Positions 4,362 to 16,431 of a DNA stretch of 64,000 nucleotides are shown here, one piece after another. This DNA comes from Bdellovibrionales bacterium (GTDB lineage Bacteria > Bdellovibrionota > UBA1018): assembly GCA_016786465.1 (NCBI GenBank), contig JAEUWC010000021.1:13786-77785 (forward strand), read 5' to 3'. The notes under the pieces were generated by a model. The model was not told the origin of the DNA, did not search any database, and was given only the letters and a program-made list of their open reading frames with translations. Numbering within the stretch: the first letter of the stretch is position 1; every line of letters begins with the position of its first letter. The position numbers and the translations under genes are program-made.

Positions 4362-5024
4362 ATGTTCTTGTTGAACAAAACCCAGAAACTTTTACCTCTT
4401 TTGGTACTTCTAGGAATCGCGCTCCCAGACCGGGTTCGCGCGGACGGACGGATCCTTTGGGAATTCGGCGCAGGGCTTAGCTTTCAGAATACAGCGTCCC
4501 CTTTTTACAACACCACGCAACCGAATTTGGACATGGGAACCGCCATGGTGTCTTCGGTTCTTTTTCAACTGACCCGCCCGTATTCGCGCCTTCGCATTTT
4601 CTTTGGCCCCAGCATTCGATACGGCACGGGGTCAGACGCCACCAACTATTTCGGAATGACGAATGCGCACTTAATGCTGCGTTTTGCTTTGCCCGGACTT
4701 TACCTGGGCGCCGGCTACGCTCCTTGGGTTTATCGGCGCGACAGCACCGCACAGGGGTTGACCGGGTTTCAGAAAGTCGCCGGCGTTTCGGCGTACATGG
4801 CTGAAGCCGGAATCGAAGTCATTGTAAATCCTGAAGCGTCGTTAGGCATCGCTGCCAGCATTCAAGCAGTCAATAACGGCGGACTGCAAAGCCCAAAGTA
4901 CGCGATCGACGGAACGGCGTATGTCAGAATTTATTTTATGGCGACCCGGGACACGGGTTCCGATTCCGAAGACTTCAGCGGTGGCTGGCGCTATCCGTTT
5001 GGTCTTGAAAAGAAGAAATACTGA
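4362..5024 (+). CDS. Hypothetical exported protein (signal peptide), possible outer-membrane protein
   Basis: MFLLNKTQKLLPLLVLLGIALP signal-like N-terminus and a GAAGGG SD. No recognisable catalytic motif. Confidence 0.45.
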   Translation: MFLLNKTQKLLPLLVLLGIALPDRVRADGRILWEFGAGLSFQNTASPFYNTTQPNLDMGTAMVSSVLFQLTRPYSRLRIFFGPSIRYGTGSDATNYFGMTNAHLMLRFALPGLYLGAGYAPWVYRRDSTAQGLTGFQKVAGVSAYMAEAGIEVIVNPEASLGIAASIQAVNNGGLQSPKYAIDGTAYVRIYFMATRDTGSDSEDFSGGWRYPFGLEKKKY

Positions 5025-6179
5025 TCACTCGACGCCAGTGATCGTATGAAAGTGGACGGTCCTTGGAGCGTCCCCCACATCGACCGACTGCCCGGTTGAC
5101 GTCAGACTTCCGGTGGATGAATCAATAGTGAACAAGCCCAAGATTTTTTCACCCGCAAATGCGACCGCAAGCGCCGATCCCGTAGTTGGTTCAACCGCAA
5201 GACCATAGGGCTGTGTATTCGATCCATAACTGAACGGAGACCCCGAAACGGCCGTAAGATTTCCCGTGGATGAATTCACGCTCAAGACTGAAATATTGTT
5301 TGAAGTGTTGTTCGAAACGAAAAGAAAAGTACCTGTTGGGTTCCCCACCATTCGAACGGGCCCCGTCCCCCCTGGAGTAAAGGTCGCCGGAGTCGTCGCA
5401 GTCAACTGGCCTGTTGACGAATTGATCGTGAAGCCCGAAATCGACCCGGCGGTTTCGTTCAAGACATGCAGAAACCGACCCTGCGGATCCATGACTAACG
5501 ATCGTGACCCCGCTGCCGCAGCGTAAGTGCCCACCAAGGTCAGGTCGCCGGTTGATGAACTGATAGAAAAGGCCGTGACATTGTTGGAACCAAAATTGGA
5601 AACATAAAGGTAAGAACCCGACGGGTCGATCACGGCCATCGCTGGATTGACACCAGCGGGTCTGGCACCCACGGTTGAAATCGCACCGGACGATGAATCA
5701 ATTGACCGAATTGAAACGTTGTTTCCAGCTTGGTTGTAGTTTGGAACATAGACGTAATTGGACGTCGGATGAATCGCGATCCCCGACGCCCCCGCGCCTG
5801 TCGAATACGCAAAAGTCGGACTGATTGCCGATAATGCCCCCGCATATTCCGACTGAAGGTCTGAAATCGAATAGACCGAAATATTCCCAGAAATGAAGTT
5901 CGCAGACAGCAGAAAGGGAAGCCCTGACCTTGATGTCAGAAAGTTGGGATTTGAAGTGCCGCCACCTGTCGCAGTGGTGGTTGCGGCACGTGATAATGTT
6001 CCGTCTTCAAGCCGAAACACAGAAACCGTGCTTGAACTGTAGTTCCCCACATAAACGTAAGATTCCGTTTTTTGCTGACCGATCAATGCAAACCCGTCCG
6101 CCACACCACAGGAACTGATCCATGGAAAAATCGGCAAGAGCGCTAGCAGATATCGATTCATTCTTCTTCTTTCCATCAA
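5025..6179 (-). CDS. Lipoprotein with beta-propeller (lactonase/YVTN-type) repeats
   Basis: Lipobox ISSC after a signal peptide. Repeated ~45 aa units with YVYV.N/YLYVSN/FLHVLN/FLFVSN, S/T/G-rich. Confidence 0.6.
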   Translation of the reverse strand: MMERRRMNRYLLALLPIFPWISSCGVADGFALIGQQKTESYVYVGNYSSSTVSVFRLEDGTLSRAATTTATGGGTSNPNFLTSRSGLPFLLSANFISGNISVYSISDLQSEYAGALSAISPTFAYSTGAGASGIAIHPTSNYVYVPNYNQAGNNVSIRSIDSSSGAISTVGARPAGVNPAMAVIDPSGSYLYVSNFGSNNVTAFSISSSTGDLTLVGTYAAAAGSRSLVMDPQGRFLHVLNETAGSISGFTINSSTGQLTATTPATFTPGGTGPVRMVGNPTGTFLFVSNNTSNNISVLSVNSSTGNLTAVSGSPFSYGSNTQPYGLAVEPTTGSALAVAFAGEKILGLFTIDSSTGSLTSTGQSVDVGDAPRTVHFHTITGVE

Positions 6180-6763
6180 AACGGGTACGTCAACCCCAGT
6201 CCATAGTTAGTCAGCACCACAGGAATCTGTGTCGAAGTCGGCGTTCCATCCAGCGCCTGATTCGAAAATTTTACGGATTCATAGTACAAGACCGGCTTAA
6301 ACTTGAACTTCCATCCAATCATCATTTCGGCGCGAAAACCCGATGCTTTTTGGTAGGACAGCTTTTGTCCTGTAGCCGTCGTGTTCTGCATCGTATAGCT
6401 ACCCAAGATGTGAAGAATCCCTTTCACAGAAATCATTTTGTATTCGAAACCTAGTAGCGGCGAAACATAGGTCAGCGAACCGCCGCGTCGGTTTCCCACG
6501 GTGGGATCGTAATCCGAAAACTGGGTCACGAATCGATAGTCCACACTCATTCCCACCAGAAATTTGGACTTGATTCGAATTCCAAGCGTTGTTCCGATAT
6601 TCGTTGCTCCGACCGAAGTTTGCGACGTGTCGGCGGTCGAAACTGAACTTCCGTAGCCGGCAAGCAAGTGCGGATGAAACCACGCCACTTTCTTGGCCTG
6701 CTGCGCGGATGCAGGGGCTGCGATCAGGATCCCAAAGATCAGTATTAAAAAACTTCGAACCAT
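6176..6763 (-). CDS. Outer-membrane beta-barrel protein
   Basis: Signal peptide MVRSFLILIFGILIAAPASA. Alternating amphipathic strands and a C-terminal ...GLTYPF aromatic terminus typical of OMPs. Confidence 0.55.
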   Translation of the reverse strand: MVRSFLILIFGILIAAPASAQQAKKVAWFHPHLLAGYGSSVSTADTSQTSVGATNIGTTLGIRIKSKFLVGMSVDYRFVTQFSDYDPTVGNRRGGSLTYVSPLLGFEYKMISVKGILHILGSYTMQNTTATGQKLSYQKASGFRAEMMIGWKFKFKPVLYYESVKFSNQALDGTPTSTQIPVVLTNYGLGLTYPF

Positions 6764-8295: not shown

Positions 8296-9876
8296 TTAAG
8301 CGGCTTCTTCGCCCGACCGAGCTAGCTTGCGCTTATCCAATCCGTATTTTTCGACCTTCATGATCAGACCCGCTCTGGAAATTCCAAGCTCTTTTGCAAG
8401 CCGGCTTTTATTCCAGTTGGTCCGCTTCAAGCCTTCACGGATCATCGTCTTTTCAAGTTCTTCCAAAGCATCCTTCAGTTTGCCTGCAACGCGAACGCCC
8501 TGAACCTTTGTTGCTTCACCGAACTCGCGAATTCTTGGCGAAAGAAGTTCGGCTGCGACTTTGTCTTCATCACCCGAAAGAACAATCAGACGTTCGATTT
8601 CGTTCTGAAGTTCGCGGATGTTACCTGGCCATGGATAATCCAGGATCTTTTCCATCGCGCGTTTTGCCAGAATCTTTGGCTTCACCTTTTTTTCCTTACA
8701 ACCTTCGGCGACGAAGTGATCGACCAAGATCGGAATGTCTTCTTTGCGGTTACGCAGCGAAGGCACGACCAAGTTGATGACGTTGATGCGGTAATAAAGA
8801 TCTTCACGGAACTGACCTTGTTCGATCATTTCTTTCAGATCTTTGTTGGTTGCAGCGACCACCCGCACGTCGACTTTGATCTGTCCCGTTCCACCGACAG
8901 GAAGAAGCGTTCCTTCTTGAAGAACGCGAAGCAGCTTCACCTGCATCGTCAGCGTCATATCGCCGATTTCATCCAAAAACAGGGTTCCCTTGTTTGCGGC
9001 TTCGAAAAGACCCTTCTTGTCCTTGATCGCGCCCGTAAACGCGCCCTTCACGTGACCGAAAAGTTCGCTATCCAGCAAGTTTTCGTTGAACGCCGAACAG
9101 TTCACGGTGACGAATGGCAGGTCTTTTCGCGCAGAATTATAGTGAATTGCGCGCGCAATCAATTCCTTACCGGTTCCGTTTTCACCTTGGACCAGAACCG
9201 TCGAATCCGAATTCTTGATCTTGTCCAACATCCCGTAAAGTTCTTGCATCGGCTTCGACTTACCGATCATTTGGTCATAGCGATAGCGATGACCCAATTC
9301 CGTATTCAATGCCGTGATGCGCTCTTCGCGCTTTGAAATTTCCGTGTGGAAAGTCACGATTTCCTGCGCGACCAGATCGACCAGCTCGTAGAAGTACTTG
9401 CGCTCTCCACCGCTCAAAACTTTCAATTTACCCAAGGCAGCTGCGAAAGCTTCGCCGTCCAGCCCCAACGCTTCGATCTTTGCGATCGCTTTTGCACGAG
9501 CGTCAGCAGGGATATCTTTTTCGATGATCGAATAAGCGATCACGCTTCCAAAAAAATCGTTTCCAATGGCGATCCTGGAAACGACGACTTGCTCGGCGCC
9601 GCTCGGACCAGGGATGACCAAATGCGCTTGGTCGCTTCCGAAAATCTTTTCATTCGCTTCTTTCATGAAGTTCAAGATCAGTTCACGGCCCTTTTCTTTT
9701 GGAAGCAAGGTTGCCGAAATAGGGTTCTTGAATTCGCGCTGGCGATCTAATGGATCGAAGTTGCGAACCTGTCCGCGTTCATCGACAAAAAAGATTTCAG
9801 TGCTAAACCACTGAGCCAGAATCTCTTCTAGTTTACGAATGACGTGAATGTGCTTCAGCTCTTCCCAATTGATCAT
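8296..9876 (-). CDS. Sigma-54-dependent transcriptional activator (AAA+ EBP with Fis-type HTH) and a non-receiver N-terminal sensory domain
   Basis: Walker [16 protein letters not shown] (GAFTGA-region), C-terminal [19 protein letters not shown]. The ~200 aa N-terminal domain is not a REC domain. Confidence 0.85.
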
Positions 9877-10020
9877 AAGTGCGTCTCCAAGAAGCTCTTC
9901 GGCAGTTTCTGACCAATAGTTAAGCAGTGCTTGCTATTTTTTTGACAACCCTGCGTAAATCATTTGGGCATCAATAGGTTGTACACTTTTACCAGCGCGC
10001 TAATTGTTAAGACCCTGATA

Positions 10021-10578
10021 TTATTGGCGACGGCCTTCAACCGCGTTGGCCACCTGGGTGAAAAGTTCGGACATTGCCGATGATCCCCATTCTTGGGGGC
10101 CAACCCATTTCGAAAGGATGCGCCGATCCGGCGCAATCAAATAGGTTTCGGGAAACTGAAAGGACCCAAAAAGTTCCGGCACCCGGCTTTCCGAATCCAG
10201 CACAGACACCACGTTTTTAGGCGTTTTTTCTGGTTTTAGGAATTCTTCAGCTTTCGCCCAGGACTTGTCTAGGCTGACTGCAACAAAACGAATCGGACGC
10301 CCTTCAAAGCGCCGCGCCATTTCAACCCATTCAGGAAGTTCTTCCAGACAGGGCGCACACCAAGTTGCCCAAAAGTGAAGCACGACGATTTCGCCCTTTG
10401 AACTGTCTAAGGAATAGATAGTGCCGTCTTTTCGGGGAAGCTTGAACGAAGGCGCGTCGATCAATCGCAATTTGCCCGACTGTTCTTGATCCCTGAAAAA
10501 GAAGACGCCTGCAACCAACAGGATACCAAGAACCAGAATCGCCATTTTTTTGGCGTTTTTTCGCAGAAAAACGTTCAT
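10021..10578 (-). CDS. TlpA/ResA-like thiol:disulfide oxidoreductase (thioredoxin fold, membrane-anchored)
   Basis: N-terminal TM helix and a WATWCAPCLEE CxxC motif. Confidence 0.75.
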   Translation of the reverse strand: MNVFLRKNAKKMAILVLGILLVAGVFFFRDQEQSGKLRLIDAPSFKLPRKDGTIYSLDSSKGEIVVLHFWATWCAPCLEELPEWVEMARRFEGRPIRFVAVSLDKSWAKAEEFLKPEKTPKNVVSVLDSESRVPELFGSFQFPETYLIAPDRRILSKWVGPQEWGSSAMSELFTQVANAVEGRRQ

Positions 10579-10610
10579 GAAGCCCTAAATTACCGACCAA
10601 AACCCTCGAG

Positions 10611-10640
10611 TTGCAAGGCCTTTTCTATTTCCGCTATACT
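10611..10640 (+). promoter_or_regulatory. Sigma-70-type promoter TTGCAA-N18-TATACT upstream of the HNH-sigma-anti-sigma operon
   Basis: TTGCAA at 10611-10616 and TATACT at 10635-10640, then a GGGAGGAAG SD and the ATG at 10660. Confidence 0.5.
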
Positions 10641-10659
10641 CAATGAAGGGAGGAAGATC

Positions 10660-11256
10660 ATGTCTCACGCGTTAGTTCTCAACGCGAGTTTTGAACCACT
10701 CCACATTGTGACTTGGCAACGTGCCATGCAACTTCTCTTCCAGGGAAAAGTTGAGGTGATCGAAGAGTCCGATCACGAAGTTCACACCGTCCGACTCACG
10801 ATCCGCGTTCCAGCAGTGCTGCGGCTTCTGAGCTACGTTCCTCTGACCCGAAAAAAACAAATCGTAAGATTTTCCCGCGCGAATATTTTCATACGCGACC
10901 GTAACGCCTGCCAGTATTGCGGAAAAGTTTTTCCAAAAAGCCATCTGACTTTGGATCACGTCGTGCCCATCGTTCAGGGCGGACCCAAGTCCTGGGAAAA
11001 TATCGTAACGGCCTGCAAGCCCTGCAATCAGAAAAAGGGCGGACGCACGCCGACCCAAGCCGGAATGTCTTTGGTTCGAAAGCCCAAGCAGCCCCGTTGG
11101 CTGCCGGCAACTTCCTTCCGAATGGGCGTATCCATTACTCCGGAACGCTGGAAAATTTATCTCAAACTAGAACGGGGCTCCGCCTACGGTCCAGACAATC
11201 CTCTTGATGATCCAACTGACATAGACCTTTCGGACCCGAGCGATGGCGACCGCTAA
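10660..11256 (+). CDS. HNH endonuclease family protein
   Basis: CQYCG...LTLDHVVPIVQGGPKSWENIVTACKPCNQKKG is an HNH/His-Me finger with zinc cysteines. Strong SD. Confidence 0.8.
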   Translation: MSHALVLNASFEPLHIVTWQRAMQLLFQGKVEVIEESDHEVHTVRLTIRVPAVLRLLSYVPLTRKKQIVRFSRANIFIRDRNACQYCGKVFPKSHLTLDHVVPIVQGGPKSWENIVTACKPCNQKKGGRTPTQAGMSLVRKPKQPRWLPATSFRMGVSITPERWKIYLKLERGSAYGPDNPLDDPTDIDLSDPSDGDR

Positions 11257-11803
11257 AAAAGACATTGCGAATCTGACTACTGGCGTAGCTCGTGAAGCGG
11301 CGGCGAAACTAAAACCCCTGACTTTTAAGGGGAAGAACGATTTCTACAAACGGATCACCGATACCTACGGGGATCTGATCTTTGATCTTAGCCAATCTGT
11401 CCTTTGGTCTCGGCCCAATGCACAGATCGCGTTTCGAAGGGTTCTGAAAACACTTTACCGAAGCAGTCTTTTGGGCCGCTATGCGCGTTACGAAAAAATC
11501 TGGGTCATTCGCGCGACGGTGAATTGTTTAATGGAAATGGCACCACGTTACGGTCGGACCCTTAGTTCCGCTGAAAGGATGATGCTGGACGGCAGTTTCG
11601 ACGCTGAAGGACGGATTCGACAAATTGATTCGTATTTCCATCGTCTGAATCACGAAGACCAAATTCTATTGATCCTTCGAGACAAGTACGAACTGAGCTT
11701 CGAAGATGTTTCTGCCTGCATGAACCTTCCGGTGGGATCTTTAAAGCTGAAGCGGGCACAAGCGCTCAAGGCGCTGGATGAAATGATTTGGGATCACGCA
11801 TGA
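11243..11803 (+). CDS. ECF-type sigma-70 family sigma factor (divergent)
   Basis: Region-2-like FYKRITDTYGDLIFDLSQSVLWSRPNAQIAFRRV and region-4 HTH QILLILRDKYELSFEDVSACMNLPVGSLKLKRAQALKAL. Overlaps the HNH gene by 14 nt. Confidence 0.65.
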   Translation: MATAKKDIANLTTGVAREAAAKLKPLTFKGKNDFYKRITDTYGDLIFDLSQSVLWSRPNAQIAFRRVLKTLYRSSLLGRYARYEKIWVIRATVNCLMEMAPRYGRTLSSAERMMLDGSFDAEGRIRQIDSYFHRLNHEDQILLILRDKYELSFEDVSACMNLPVGSLKLKRAQALKALDEMIWDHA

Positions 11804-12762
11804 CCGATTGCTTTCACTTCACGCAATCCATCACTGACTTCATGGATGGCAAGCTAGCTGCGCCCGAACAGAAAAGTTATTCCAACCACCTCGATTCCTG
11901 CGCGAGCTGTAAAGAACGCTTGGATCATTTCAAGAAAATCACGGCTGCCCTGAAGACTCTCCCTAAGATTCCACTGCCCGCAACCGTGCGTTCTTCGCCG
12001 ATGAGCCAGCAACCGGTTCGCGCCGAAGCCGGCGGCCCCCGACTGGATCCCAATGCAAAACCCGGCTCGAAGAATTGGATCAAGACTCCTTGGTACATCC
12101 GAAGCGGGATGGAAGGGATTGGAATAGCGATTGTCGTGCTTTTGATTGTTGGTGCCGTTCCTCGACTTCGAACCTGGTATGAAACCAGCCTGGAAAAAAG
12201 ACTAGAAAGCTTTAACTTGGCGGACTTTATCAGCAGCCAGTTCGATTCAGACGATTCATCTGCCGACGCAGATCATAAGATGTCGCGAGGTAAAACAGCG
12301 ACTGCCGCGGCCACAGCCGACGGAACTGCTTCAGAAACCCAAGATGAATTTTCAGGTGAAGAAGACGAAGAAGAAGCACAGCCCAAAGGGCGAAAGGACC
12401 GCCCCCTTCGCCTGGGAAATTCCGAAGTCCTTCGTTTCAACGTTTCGACCGACCAGCCTTTGGAATTTCGCTCGAAAGTGATCCAAATTCTCAAAGATTT
12501 GGGCGTTCCTGGGGAAACTCAGGGTATTGGCGGTGTTCAGGCTCCTGGCGGAATTCAATTTGATCTAGTCATCAATAATTCAATCGCTCAGCAGCTTCAA
12601 AAGCAGCTTCAAAAGTTGGCCAGCACCATGCCCAAACAGACCATGTCCAGAAATGGTGTTGAAACCACAACGCGCGAACCGTTTACCTGGTACAAAGTCC
12701 GCTCGCGTAGAAACATCCCGCCCGGAAAAATCCGCGTCGTCATCTGGCTGTTCCAGTACTAG
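11800..12762 (+). CDS. Zinc-binding (ZAS-like) transmembrane anti-sigma factor
   Basis: ATGA overlap with the sigma gene. HLDSCASCKERLDHF (H-x3-C-x2-C) near the N-terminus, one TM helix GIGIAIVVLLIVGAV, an acidic linker and a periplasmic C-terminal domain. Confidence 0.55.
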   Translation: MTDCFHFTQSITDFMDGKLAAPEQKSYSNHLDSCASCKERLDHFKKITAALKTLPKIPLPATVRSSPMSQQPVRAEAGGPRLDPNAKPGSKNWIKTPWYIRSGMEGIGIAIVVLLIVGAVPRLRTWYETSLEKRLESFNLADFISSQFDSDDSSADADHKMSRGKTATAAATADGTASETQDEFSGEEDEEEAQPKGRKDRPLRLGNSEVLRFNVSTDQPLEFRSKVIQILKDLGVPGETQGIGGVQAPGGIQFDLVINNSIAQQLQKQLQKLASTMPKQTMSRNGVETTTREPFTWYKVRSRRNIPPGKIRVVIWLFQY

Positions 12763-13896
12763 TTACATTCTTTGAATTTCGCGAACGAAGCTGATGTCGC
12801 GCTGAATGGTTTGATCCGGAAGATAAACGGGGGTCGACATTTTTGAATTCAGAAGCGCACGCTGCTTCTGATCATTTTCTTCCATCGAATGCTGTGCGTT
12901 TGACGTGGTGGTGGAAGAAATTCGTGCTCCGCCCATGCCTTGATCAGCTGCAGACAAGTACTGACCCCGGGCAGTTTCATAGGCGTCCACCACTTCAACT
13001 TCAACTGCGTATTGATTCGCAAGTGCCTGGTGGGTAGGTGATGACGAAGCATTCCCCGCAGGTGCGCTTCCCGGAACTGGAAGCGCCGATGCCGCCTGAA
13101 GTCCGGCGACCTGCCGTTTCTGATTCAATCCGTTGGCCGACCCTTGCATTCCCTGAATCAAATTGCGGTAGTCCGAAACTGCAGAAAGGTACGCGGCTTC
13201 GTCCAACTTTGCAGTTCCATCGGGGTTTCGATCCACAACGGTAATGTTCCCATGGTCCGGGTGGTCTGGATTTCTCAAAACTTCTTTGAACTTTGGAAAG
13301 TCTTCAGGCTTAGGAAAAGCGTGTCCCAATGCCTGAAAATCCGATGTCTTTCGAATTTCCGAAAGGCCATTCTTGGTGGCCACCTTCAATAGGTCATCGG
13401 TCGAAGGAATTGCCGCGGTCAAAACTTCTTGCGCGCGTTCTTCGGTCTTAAAGATTCGAACCAAGCTATCGGCACCCGCTTGTCCCGTCTTTTTCGCGTA
13501 GTCGACATGAAATTGGGCGGCCGTGTCCTGAGCCCTTCCGATTTCAACACGATTCTGGTTCAGGCGACTTTGAACCAGATTCAAATAATTTTTCTTACAG
13601 TCGGCGTCGGATTCTCCGGGAGCACAAAAGCTTTTCACGGACTTGGGTAACGCCGTGGATGATCCGACTTTCTTCGCTTGGTTGGCCAGATAAACTTCTT
13701 CTACCGACAGCAGACCCTTGGCTTGCTCATGCAAACAGCCCAGTCCACATTCCTTATCGTCGACCGACTTCTTTAGCGCTTGCGCGTAGTTTCCGACCGG
13801 CGCCGCCGATGGCGACGCAGCCAAACCTGACAAAGGGATCAGACCCAGCGCCAGCACTGCGATTGCGATTTTTTTCAGGTGCAAACCAAACGTCAT
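12763..13896 (-). CDS. Hypothetical secreted protein (signal peptide), Cys-containing N-terminal region
   Basis: MTFGLHLKKIAIAVLALGLIPLSGLAASP signal peptide, 377 aa. Convergent with the anti-sigma gene. Confidence 0.5.
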   Translation of the reverse strand: MTFGLHLKKIAIAVLALGLIPLSGLAASPSAAPVGNYAQALKKSVDDKECGLGCLHEQAKGLLSVEEVYLANQAKKVGSSTALPKSVKSFCAPGESDADCKKNYLNLVQSRLNQNRVEIGRAQDTAAQFHVDYAKKTGQAGADSLVRIFKTEERAQEVLTAAIPSTDDLLKVATKNGLSEIRKTSDFQALGHAFPKPEDFPKFKEVLRNPDHPDHGNITVVDRNPDGTAKLDEAAYLSAVSDYRNLIQGMQGSANGLNQKRQVAGLQAASALPVPGSAPAGNASSSPTHQALANQYAVEVEVVDAYETARGQYLSAADQGMGGARISSTTTSNAQHSMEENDQKQRALLNSKMSTPVYLPDQTIQRDISFVREIQRM

Positions 13897-14740: not shown

Positions 14741-15334
14741 TCAGCTGCTGCCGCCGGACTTCCCGCCGCCGCTTGCAGCCGGAGTTTTGCGAGCTGCGCC
14801 GCCCGTACGAGCTGCTTTTGCAGCCTTTGGAGCCTTAGCGCCGCCTTTTCCTTGATCGCGGAAAAGCTTGCGGAAGCGGTTGAAAGGATCAGCGCTTTGG
14901 TTCGCCGGAGCTGCTGCTTGAGCACCTTCTGCGCCTTCAGCCTGAGCCTTGACCTTCTTCTTGCGATCGATCACTGGATGGTCGACCAATTCCAAAACGG
15001 CCATTTCAGCCGAATCGCCCCAACGGCGGTCTGCTAGCTTCAGAACTCGGGTGTATCCACCCGCGCGCTTTGCGTAGCGTTCAGCCAAGGTGCCGAAAAG
15101 CTTCTTCACGACCGCATCGCTGCGAGTCCGATCGAAAGCCAAGCGGCGCGAAGCCAAGGTTCCCGACTTGCCCAGGGTGATCAAGCGATCCACCACACGG
15201 CGAATTTCCTTCGCCTTGTGAAGGGTCGTGATGATCTGTTCTTTTTCAATCACCGCATTAGCCATGTTCTTAAACATTGCGCGGCGGTGTGAAGTGTTAC
15301 GGCCAAACTTCCGGCCATCTACTGCGTGTCTCAT
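14741..15334 (-). CDS. rplQ: 50S ribosomal protein L17 with long Ala/Lys/Gly-rich C-terminal extension
   Basis: N-terminal 120 aa matches the L17 consensus ([21 protein letters not shown]...). ~75 aa low-complexity tail. Confidence 0.9.
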
Positions 15335-15339
15335 ACTTC

Positions 15340-16431
<1,092 letters not shown>

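Follow-up and report, generated by a model that had tools for sequence, protein, structure and literature searches.

The HNH, sigma and anti-sigma genes

The DNA analyzed here, hereafter called the window, is a stretch of 64,000 nt from a Bdellovibrionales metagenome-assembled genome (MAG); all coordinates are window positions. Analysis of open reading frames (ORFs) revealed three co-oriented ORFs filling positions 10660–12762 of the forward strand, which encode an HNH nuclease, a sigma-like protein and an anti-sigma factor. The HNH gene extends from the ATG at 10660 to the TAA at 11254–11256 (198 aa), the gene of a putative divergent sigma factor of the extracytoplasmic function (ECF) type (group 4) from the ATG at 11243 to the TGA at 11801–11803 (186 aa), and the gene of a predicted single-pass zinc-associated anti-sigma (ZAS) factor from the ATG at 11800 to the TAG at 12760–12762 (320 aa). 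The ORF check returned the overlaps given in the original prediction for this locus, 14 nt between HNH and sigma and 4 nt (ATGA) between sigma and anti-sigma.

The first protein was recognized by the Pfam models HNH (61 bits at a cutoff of 21.4, E = 1.2e-16) and HNH_5 (E = 2.5e-16). Among 56 family members the residues H100, N114, C84, C87 and C119 are invariant, and conservation is at least 90% for D99, C122 and N123; the features of the superfamily, namely the catalytic His, the Asn/Asn pair, the Cys4 zinc ligands and the HNH fold, are all present. The AlphaFold2 (AF2) model (mean predicted local distance difference test score, pLDDT, of 86) contains an N-terminal domain of beta-beta-alpha-beta-beta order (residues 1–56, 10660–10827), a beta-beta-alpha-metal domain with the Cys4 zinc site (about residues 73–137, 10876–11070) and a C-terminal part in which a conserved helix (residues 162–174) is followed by an acidic, unconserved tail. 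Judged by these residues and the modeled fold, the nuclease is intact for catalysis. A Foldseek search with the whole model, in which the HNH core dominated the matches, gave 4h9d (Gme HNH nickase) as the best structure, followed by HNH domains of the Cas9d/IscB type. Structure 4h9d was also the best match in a single-query sequence search, and the family profile placed TbaIscB first and 4h9d second. Gmet_0936 (4h9d), a Mn-dependent HNH nicking endonuclease, and IscB/Cas9d share the HNH_5-type beta-beta-alpha-metal core and the Cys4 zinc site with the window protein; the latter, however, carries an additional N-terminal beta/alpha domain of 60 aa and a C-terminal helix, and differs from IscB/Cas9d in having neither a RuvC domain nor a guide RNA.

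The deposited annotation starts the HNH protein at M23 (176 aa, P0028), by which part of the N-terminal domain is lost. As orthologues (61–82% identical, tblastn) align from residue 1, and as a promoter and a Shine-Dalgarno (SD) sequence precede position 10660, this ATG appears to be the right start, and the deposited one is probably 22 codons too short. The family comprises 313 cluster representatives (50% identity) at E ≤ 1e-30 and 5070 at E ≤ 1e-10, Leptospirillum included, with proteins of 170–200 aa that combine an N-terminal beta/alpha domain with an IscB/Cas9d-like HNH domain. A reading of the locus as a defense system was rejected, as PADLOC gave only generic matches to the HNH core (PtuB, Cas9) and none for sigma or anti-sigma.

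The second protein is identical to JNL01_11400, annotated as ‘hypothetical’, and one orthologue is annotated as ‘sigma factor-like helix-turn-helix DNA-binding protein’. By itself, the window protein stays below the Pfam cutoff for Sigma70_r4_2 (17.1 vs. 25.7 bits), and Sigma70_r2 was undetected in it and reached an E-value of 0.12 in one of 27 relatives. The original prediction had named a failure in these models as grounds against its ECF assignment, and for the single window protein this failure was literally what we found. The assignment was rescued by the family as a whole. Of 27 family members, 25 gave a match to Sigma70_r4_2 (best E = 3.2e-10), and the window protein has sub-threshold matches to many NCBIfam ECF models, several of which align from about residue 34 to 181. 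In an hmmsearch against the PDB the family profile matched SigW (5wuq) over its full length (E = 8e-4) as well as sigma4 of SigD, SigE and SigH, and hhalign aligned it with SigW at 87.5% probability (E = 3.6e-6) over 134 columns across sigma2 and sigma4. A sigma2-like domain would thus occupy about residues 35–105, where the family keeps a helix pattern of the WxLxIA type, and sigma4 about residues 120–183. The alignment with SigW leaves no room for sigma3, and the length (186 aa in the window, 142–210 aa across the family) fits a sigma factor free of regions 1.1 and 3. On the strength of these profiles, and despite the failure of the single protein in Pfam, we accept the 186-aa protein as a highly divergent ECF-type sigma factor with an atypical sigma2.

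The third protein had been described as a membrane anti-sigma factor with an H-x3-C-x2-C motif and a periplasmic domain, a description that our analysis supports. Its putative zinc ligands, C4 and H30-x3-C34-x2-C37, are conserved in 43 orthologues, H30 being invariant and the three Cys at least 90% conserved. The Pfam model zf-HC2 scored 21.0 bits, 1.2 bits under its cutoff of 22.2, and the RsrA model of NCBIfam matched with E = 1e-5, below the model’s own cutoff; PGAP labels several orthologues ‘zf-HC2 domain-containing protein’. The ligands lie in a predicted cytoplasmic helical domain (residues 1–55, 11800–11964, pLDDT about 90 in AF2), for which Foldseek found a weak match to RslA (3hug_L, TMt 0.61, E = 2.6). 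A single predicted transmembrane (TM) helix with a hydrophobic core at residues 104–122 (12109–12165) and a disordered acidic linker (residues 146–204) lead to a conserved periplasmic alpha/beta domain at residues 205–320 (12412–12759), which AF2 models with pLDDT values mostly between 81 and 95 and one low block of 10 residues. This domain contains the motifs WRF..KTDSP, PGGIQFD, FTWY and VVIWLSQ and the invariant residues F213, P249-G250-G251, F254, W297 and W316. It had no match in Pfam and no significant fold match in the PDB (Foldseek), and by its model may represent an undescribed sensor domain.

The anti-sigma gene follows the sigma gene in all 45 loci in which the contig continues, and in at least 26 loci a start codon is positioned exactly 4 nt ahead of the sigma stop. 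In three loci (L056–L058) the two proteins are fused into one ORF of 478 aa with an intact ZAS motif (L056: 3548–4984), an arrangement found on at least 14 metagenome contigs. Locus L028 likewise has sigma and anti-sigma in one frame (about 4930–6413), with a ZAS motif that looks degenerate; a stop codon follows the HNH gene there, and only sigma and anti-sigma share the frame. The overlap of 4 nt, present in 26 or more loci, and the fusions in two lineages point to sigma and anti-sigma as true partners, and the anti-sigma would bind and inhibit the adjacent sigma. While sigma and anti-sigma fuse in two lineages, no fusion of HNH to either of them was seen.

Promoters and transcription of the locus

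Upstream of the HNH gene, the original prediction had placed a promoter and a strong SD sequence, both of which were found at the correct positions on the forward strand. The promoter (10611–10640) consists of TTGCAA (10611–10616), an 18-nt spacer and TATACT (10635–10640). Transcription is predicted to start near 10647, which leaves a leader of about 13 nt with the SD sequence GGGAGG (10648–10653) located 6 nt before the ATG. Viewed only as a match to the consensus, this promoter does not exceed chance, as the consensus scan found 2 sites where 2.4 were expected. Phylogenetic footprinting on 42 sequences, the window and 41 orthologous upstream regions, however, revealed TTGCnn-N18-TATAAT upstream of HNH in 39, with a spacer of exactly 18 nt in 38 of these 39 carriers. 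We therefore accept the promoter as real because it is conserved across relatives and not for its match to the consensus; its sequence is of the housekeeping, sigma70 type and not of the ECF type. In 33 of the sequences 5–9 nt lie between the end of the -10 element and the ATG, so that the mRNA is predicted to be leaderless, and a comparison of the upstream regions revealed neither leader nor SD sequence at HNH in most relatives. Short leaders containing an SD sequence are present instead in the window, L005, L040/L041 and L046.

In a number of relatives the sigma gene has a promoter of its own, located within the 3′ end of the HNH gene. The motif TTGAC(C/T)-N16-18-TAGnnT has 12 matches in the 393 kb scanned on both strands, each lying directly before a sigma start (in L001, L002, L004, L007, L008, L010, L011, L019, L022, L024, L033, and L047). 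The main form, TTGACC-N17-TAGCCT, is sigma70-like, and as all 12 motifs end 6–11 nt before the sigma start codon, a leaderless mRNA is predicted here as well. The motif overlaps the C-terminal codons or the stop of HNH, to the extent that the HNH stop can be the TAG of the -10 element or a TGA inside the -35 element. A looser form, TAnnnT, precedes the sigma start by 3–13 nt in 21 of 43 loci, compared to a background of 8.6%. The promoter is even kept in L030, where HNH is gone. In the window neither the full motif nor TAnnnT was found before the sigma start, and no ECF-type (AAC...CGT) autoregulatory promoter was seen for the sigma pair.

The three window genes lie on the same strand, overlap, are preceded by the conserved promoter at 10611–10640 and contain no internal promoter motif; one transcription unit is therefore plausible for the window. 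As there is no space for a terminator between the genes, transcription from the HNH promoter is expected to read through into sigma and anti-sigma. No SD sequence is evident before the sigma start, and the first 14 nt of the gene overlap the end of HNH, which suggests that its translation is coupled to that of HNH.

Gene order in Bdellovibrionota and the place of the nuclease

A scan with the sigma alignment, using one genome per GTDB species, collected 47 loci, all of them from Bdellovibrionota-type MAGs or from genomes labeled Bacteriovoracaceae, Oligoflexia or Bdellovibrionia. Conservation of the three-gene arrangement, the check that the original prediction had proposed, was confirmed in this set. 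Searches with the window proteins (tblastn) located HNH directly upstream of sigma in 42 of the 45 informative species loci, with a spacing that ranges from overlap to about 80 nt, and loci sampled via HNH agree with this, as the sigma pair follows in three of three close HNH orthologues. The exceptions are L016, where HNH is missing and the ResA-like gene adjoins sigma; L030 (3808–4998), where thiI extends 4 nt over the sigma start and the 5 kb upstream contain neither HNH nor ResA; and L040 (1189–2932), where two genes for secreted or lipoprotein-like proteins (296 and 272 aa) lie between HNH and sigma, an insertion that is not present in its close relative L041.

The surrounding genes follow the same pattern. 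A gene for a ResA-like thiol-disulfide oxidoreductase adjoins HNH in every locus with enough flank, and most of the 47 species have a sigma54-dependent activator, the ResA-like gene and rplQ/rpoA around the three genes. Since the ResA-like gene and rplQ/rpoA are equally conserved, the whole block is syntenic, and the adjacency of HNH and sigma is by itself not specific. The proteins differ in their rate of change: across species, identity is 61–82% for HNH and 58–77% for RplQ, compared to 27–49% for sigma and 27–40% for anti-sigma. HNH thus evolves like RplQ, and sigma and anti-sigma evolve fast. Outside this lineage no link was found. Seven distant HNH homologues stand in unrelated contexts (MurJ/S20/holA, DprA/TopA, UvrA, and others), and neither a Sigma70 match in Pfam nor a member of the two families (sigma, anti-sigma) was found nearby in any of the seven sampled contexts; a 172-aa ORF downstream of one of these homologues (L052) was considered as a sigma candidate and turned out to be unrelated.

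The locus is best explained, and we regard this as reasonably probable, as a lineage-specific operon that joins a housekeeping-like HNH nuclease to a separate, divergent ECF/ZAS pair; the data speak for an inherited gene order with shared transcription rather than for a new machine built of a nuclease and a regulator. In such an operon HNH would be transcribed constitutively from its conserved sigma70-type promoter, and in the window the sigma pair, having no promoter of its own, would be transcribed by read-through from there. Ribosomes would re-initiate at the overlapping starts (14 nt and ATGA), resulting in coupled translation, and the HNH gene would thereby provide a constitutive basal expression of the sigma/anti-sigma pair. 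The cytoplasmic ZAS domain of the anti-sigma would hold sigma at the inner membrane until a signal sensed by the periplasmic alpha/beta domain leads to its release, either via regulated proteolysis, as in other single-pass or fused anti-sigma factors, or via oxidation of the zinc-thiol center. The freed sigma would then direct RNA polymerase to its regulon. HNH itself would most likely perform unrelated housekeeping work on DNA, nicking or cleaving it.

Several points weigh against this explanation. HNH and sigma have remained adjacent in about 93% of species although sigma fell to 35–49% identity, which exceeds what is seen for many unrelated neighbors, and tight spacing and overlaps are typical of operons whose genes are functionally linked. 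The -35 element of the HNH promoter, conserved as the non-consensus TTGC, and its fixed 18-nt spacer are unusual, and a sigma-dependent input on HNH is possible. Moreover, most loci were collected via sigma, so that genomes with HNH and without sigma are under-sampled, the HNH side being represented by three close and seven distant homologues.

HNH could instead be a functional part of the sigma/anti-sigma module, either as an effector co-induced under stress or as a modulator of sigma/anti-sigma activity. As an effector it could act under envelope or oxidative stress, for example in DNA repair, in the degradation of prey DNA or in the control of self-DNA. Such a role agrees with the gene order: in 42 of 45 species HNH directly precedes sigma, overlapping it or separated from it by some 80 nt at most, which leaves no space for a terminator, and the pair is present beside all three close HNH orthologues. 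The sigma promoter embedded in the HNH coding sequence points to a physical co-evolution of both genes. Nevertheless, the HNH promoter is of the conserved sigma70 type, the homologues of other phyla stand alone in housekeeping contexts, three natural genomes uncouple HNH and sigma, and the two sigma/anti-sigma fusions have no counterpart that includes HNH. The very different evolutionary rates of HNH and sigma and the equally conserved synteny of the ResA-like gene and rplQ/rpoA speak against it too, and we consider a functional part of this kind unlikely. We also consider it unlikely that HNH constitutes a true third component of the sigma/anti-sigma system in this Bdellovibrionota lineage; it could then be an effector with a dosage linked to the pair, or could act on sigma, on anti-sigma or on sigma-dependent promoters. 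The functional reading of the original prediction, an envelope-stress-controlled nuclease or one domesticated as a regulatory partner, is not supported: the nuclease has a sigma70-type promoter, and sigma has a separate one in many relatives. The proposed functional link between nuclease and sigma is absent from the seven distant contexts, broken in L016, L030 and L040 and not reflected in any fusion, and synteny is as strong for the flanking ResA-like gene as for HNH.

Two further explanations concern the identity of the proteins. The 186-aa protein might be a sigma4-like helix-turn-helix regulator or a degenerate sigma relic, and its partner a membrane protein with an unrelated zinc finger. 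The failure of Sigma70_r2, the two cautious annotations and the score of zf-HC2 just under the Pfam cutoff would fit this, but the family profile aligns with SigW over both sigma2 and sigma4, several NCBIfam ECF models span about residues 34–181, and the WxLxIA-type helix pattern of sigma2 is conserved; the partner has the conserved C/H/C/C set, an RslA-like helical N-domain and a TM helix, and overlap and fusions match the fused ECF/anti-sigma architectures IutY and ECF48/52/53 (PMC8999054). We therefore consider this explanation improbable. Alternatively, HNH could be a mobile or selfish element, such as a homing endonuclease or a remnant of an IshB-type OMEGA/IS200-IS605 element, that landed upstream of a sigma operon. 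Its HNH domain is most similar to those of IscB/Cas9d, and its size and two-domain layout resemble the IshB class (about 180 aa, PLMP and HNH; PMC11610941, PMC10734217). The transposon hallmarks of IshB (ends, omega-RNA, variable positions), however, are not seen for the window HNH. It occupies the same orthologous position in 43 species at 61–82% identity and with a conserved promoter; at the locus GC is uniform and we found no repeats, no terminal repeats and no match to Rfam or omega-RNA. A profile of the N-terminal domain had no sequence match in the PDB, IscB/IsrB chains included, and hhalign gave a probability of 4.5% against an approximate IscB N-terminus. A mobile origin thus seems very improbable, and present-day mobility of the gene is largely refuted.

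If the locus is indeed a lineage-specific operon of a housekeeping-like nuclease and an independent ECF/ZAS pair, its value is mostly descriptive. It would add a new, highly divergent ECF/ZAS family, limited to predatory Bdellovibrionota-type bacteria and easily missed, as the ‘hypothetical’ annotation of the window sigma illustrates. The family would bring an uncharacterized periplasmic sensor domain and occasional natural sigma/anti-sigma fusions, and the locus unusually well-conserved promoters that predict leaderless mRNAs. The HNH start codon is corrected as well, and attention is drawn to a widespread, slowly evolving family of small HNH proteins without known role. A nuclease with a functional tie to the pair would represent a novel kind of ECF output or partner and could bear on the way predatory bacteria couple envelope signals to DNA processing; as a third component it would make the locus a nuclease-coupled ECF signaling module with a new periplasmic sensor domain.

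Related systems and flanking genes

SigW-RsiW, SigR-RsrA and SigL-RslA, which pair an ECF sigma with a class I ZAS factor, resemble the window proteins in several respects. With the domains as predicted for the window proteins, they share a two-domain sigma (sigma2, sigma4) of less than 200 aa, an overlapping downstream anti-sigma gene, the HxxxCxxC zinc motif in a helical N-domain, and a single TM helix followed by an extracytoplasmic C-terminal domain. In contrast to these systems, sigma2 of the window protein is so divergent that the Pfam r2 model fails, the periplasmic domain of the anti-sigma has no match in Pfam or the PDB, and the sigma promoter of the relatives is a sigma70-like TTGACC-N17-TAGCCT of the leaderless type, with no AAC...CGT promoter. 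The fused groups IutY/ECF243 and ECF48/52/53 are thought to be activated by proteolysis (PMC8999054). They have the same architecture as L056–L058 and L028, with sigma, ZAS, TM and periplasmic parts in one polypeptide; in the window, however, the proteins are separate, and the fused forms occur sporadically within one family and define no group. Our literature search found no description of an HNH-ECF-ZAS operon, and the main text of the ECF reclassification paper mentions neither HNH nor Bdellovibrio.

Within the same phylum, B. bacteriovorus HD100 co-transcribes the small RpoE-like sigma gene bd0881 with the upstream gene bd0880 and the downstream ‘orphan’ gene bd0882, and deletion of bd0881 lowers predation efficiency (PMC3464611). 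Bd0881 was rejected as a counterpart of the window sigma, as its residues in Table 1 of that study (F at the position of RpoE R149; PxGTxKSRxSLxR) misfit the invariant LRDKY and PEGSLK of the window family. Judged from these published residues, the two are probably different ECF sigma factors. A scan of the metagenome contigs with the exact primers for bd0880–bd0882 found nothing.

Upstream of HNH, the region 8296–10578 contains the gene of the sigma54-dependent activator and then, nearer to HNH, the ResA-like gene. The latter (10021–10578, reverse strand) encodes a ResA/TlpA-like membrane thiol-disulfide oxidoreductase (Pfam AhpC-TSA/Redoxin, NCBIfam ResA subfamily) and is transcribed divergently from HNH, with an intergenic region of 81 nt upstream of HNH. 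We list it as a conserved neighbor and as context, not as a member of the system. The proximity of a thiol-disulfide oxidoreductase to an anti-sigma of the zinc-thiol (ZAS) type might point to a redox theme; no promoter motif was found in common.

Downstream, rplQ and rpoA lie at 14741–16431. Between them and the anti-sigma gene, a convergent gene (12763–13896, reverse strand) encodes an unannotated, secreted-looking protein of 377 aa with a signal-peptide-like N-terminus and no match in Pfam or NCBIfam. No base separates this gene from the anti-sigma stop, the TAG being followed directly by TTA (12760–12765). The protein is weakly conserved in some relatives, at 21–33% identity over most of its length, and a short stretch of 49 residues reaches 55% identity in L012.

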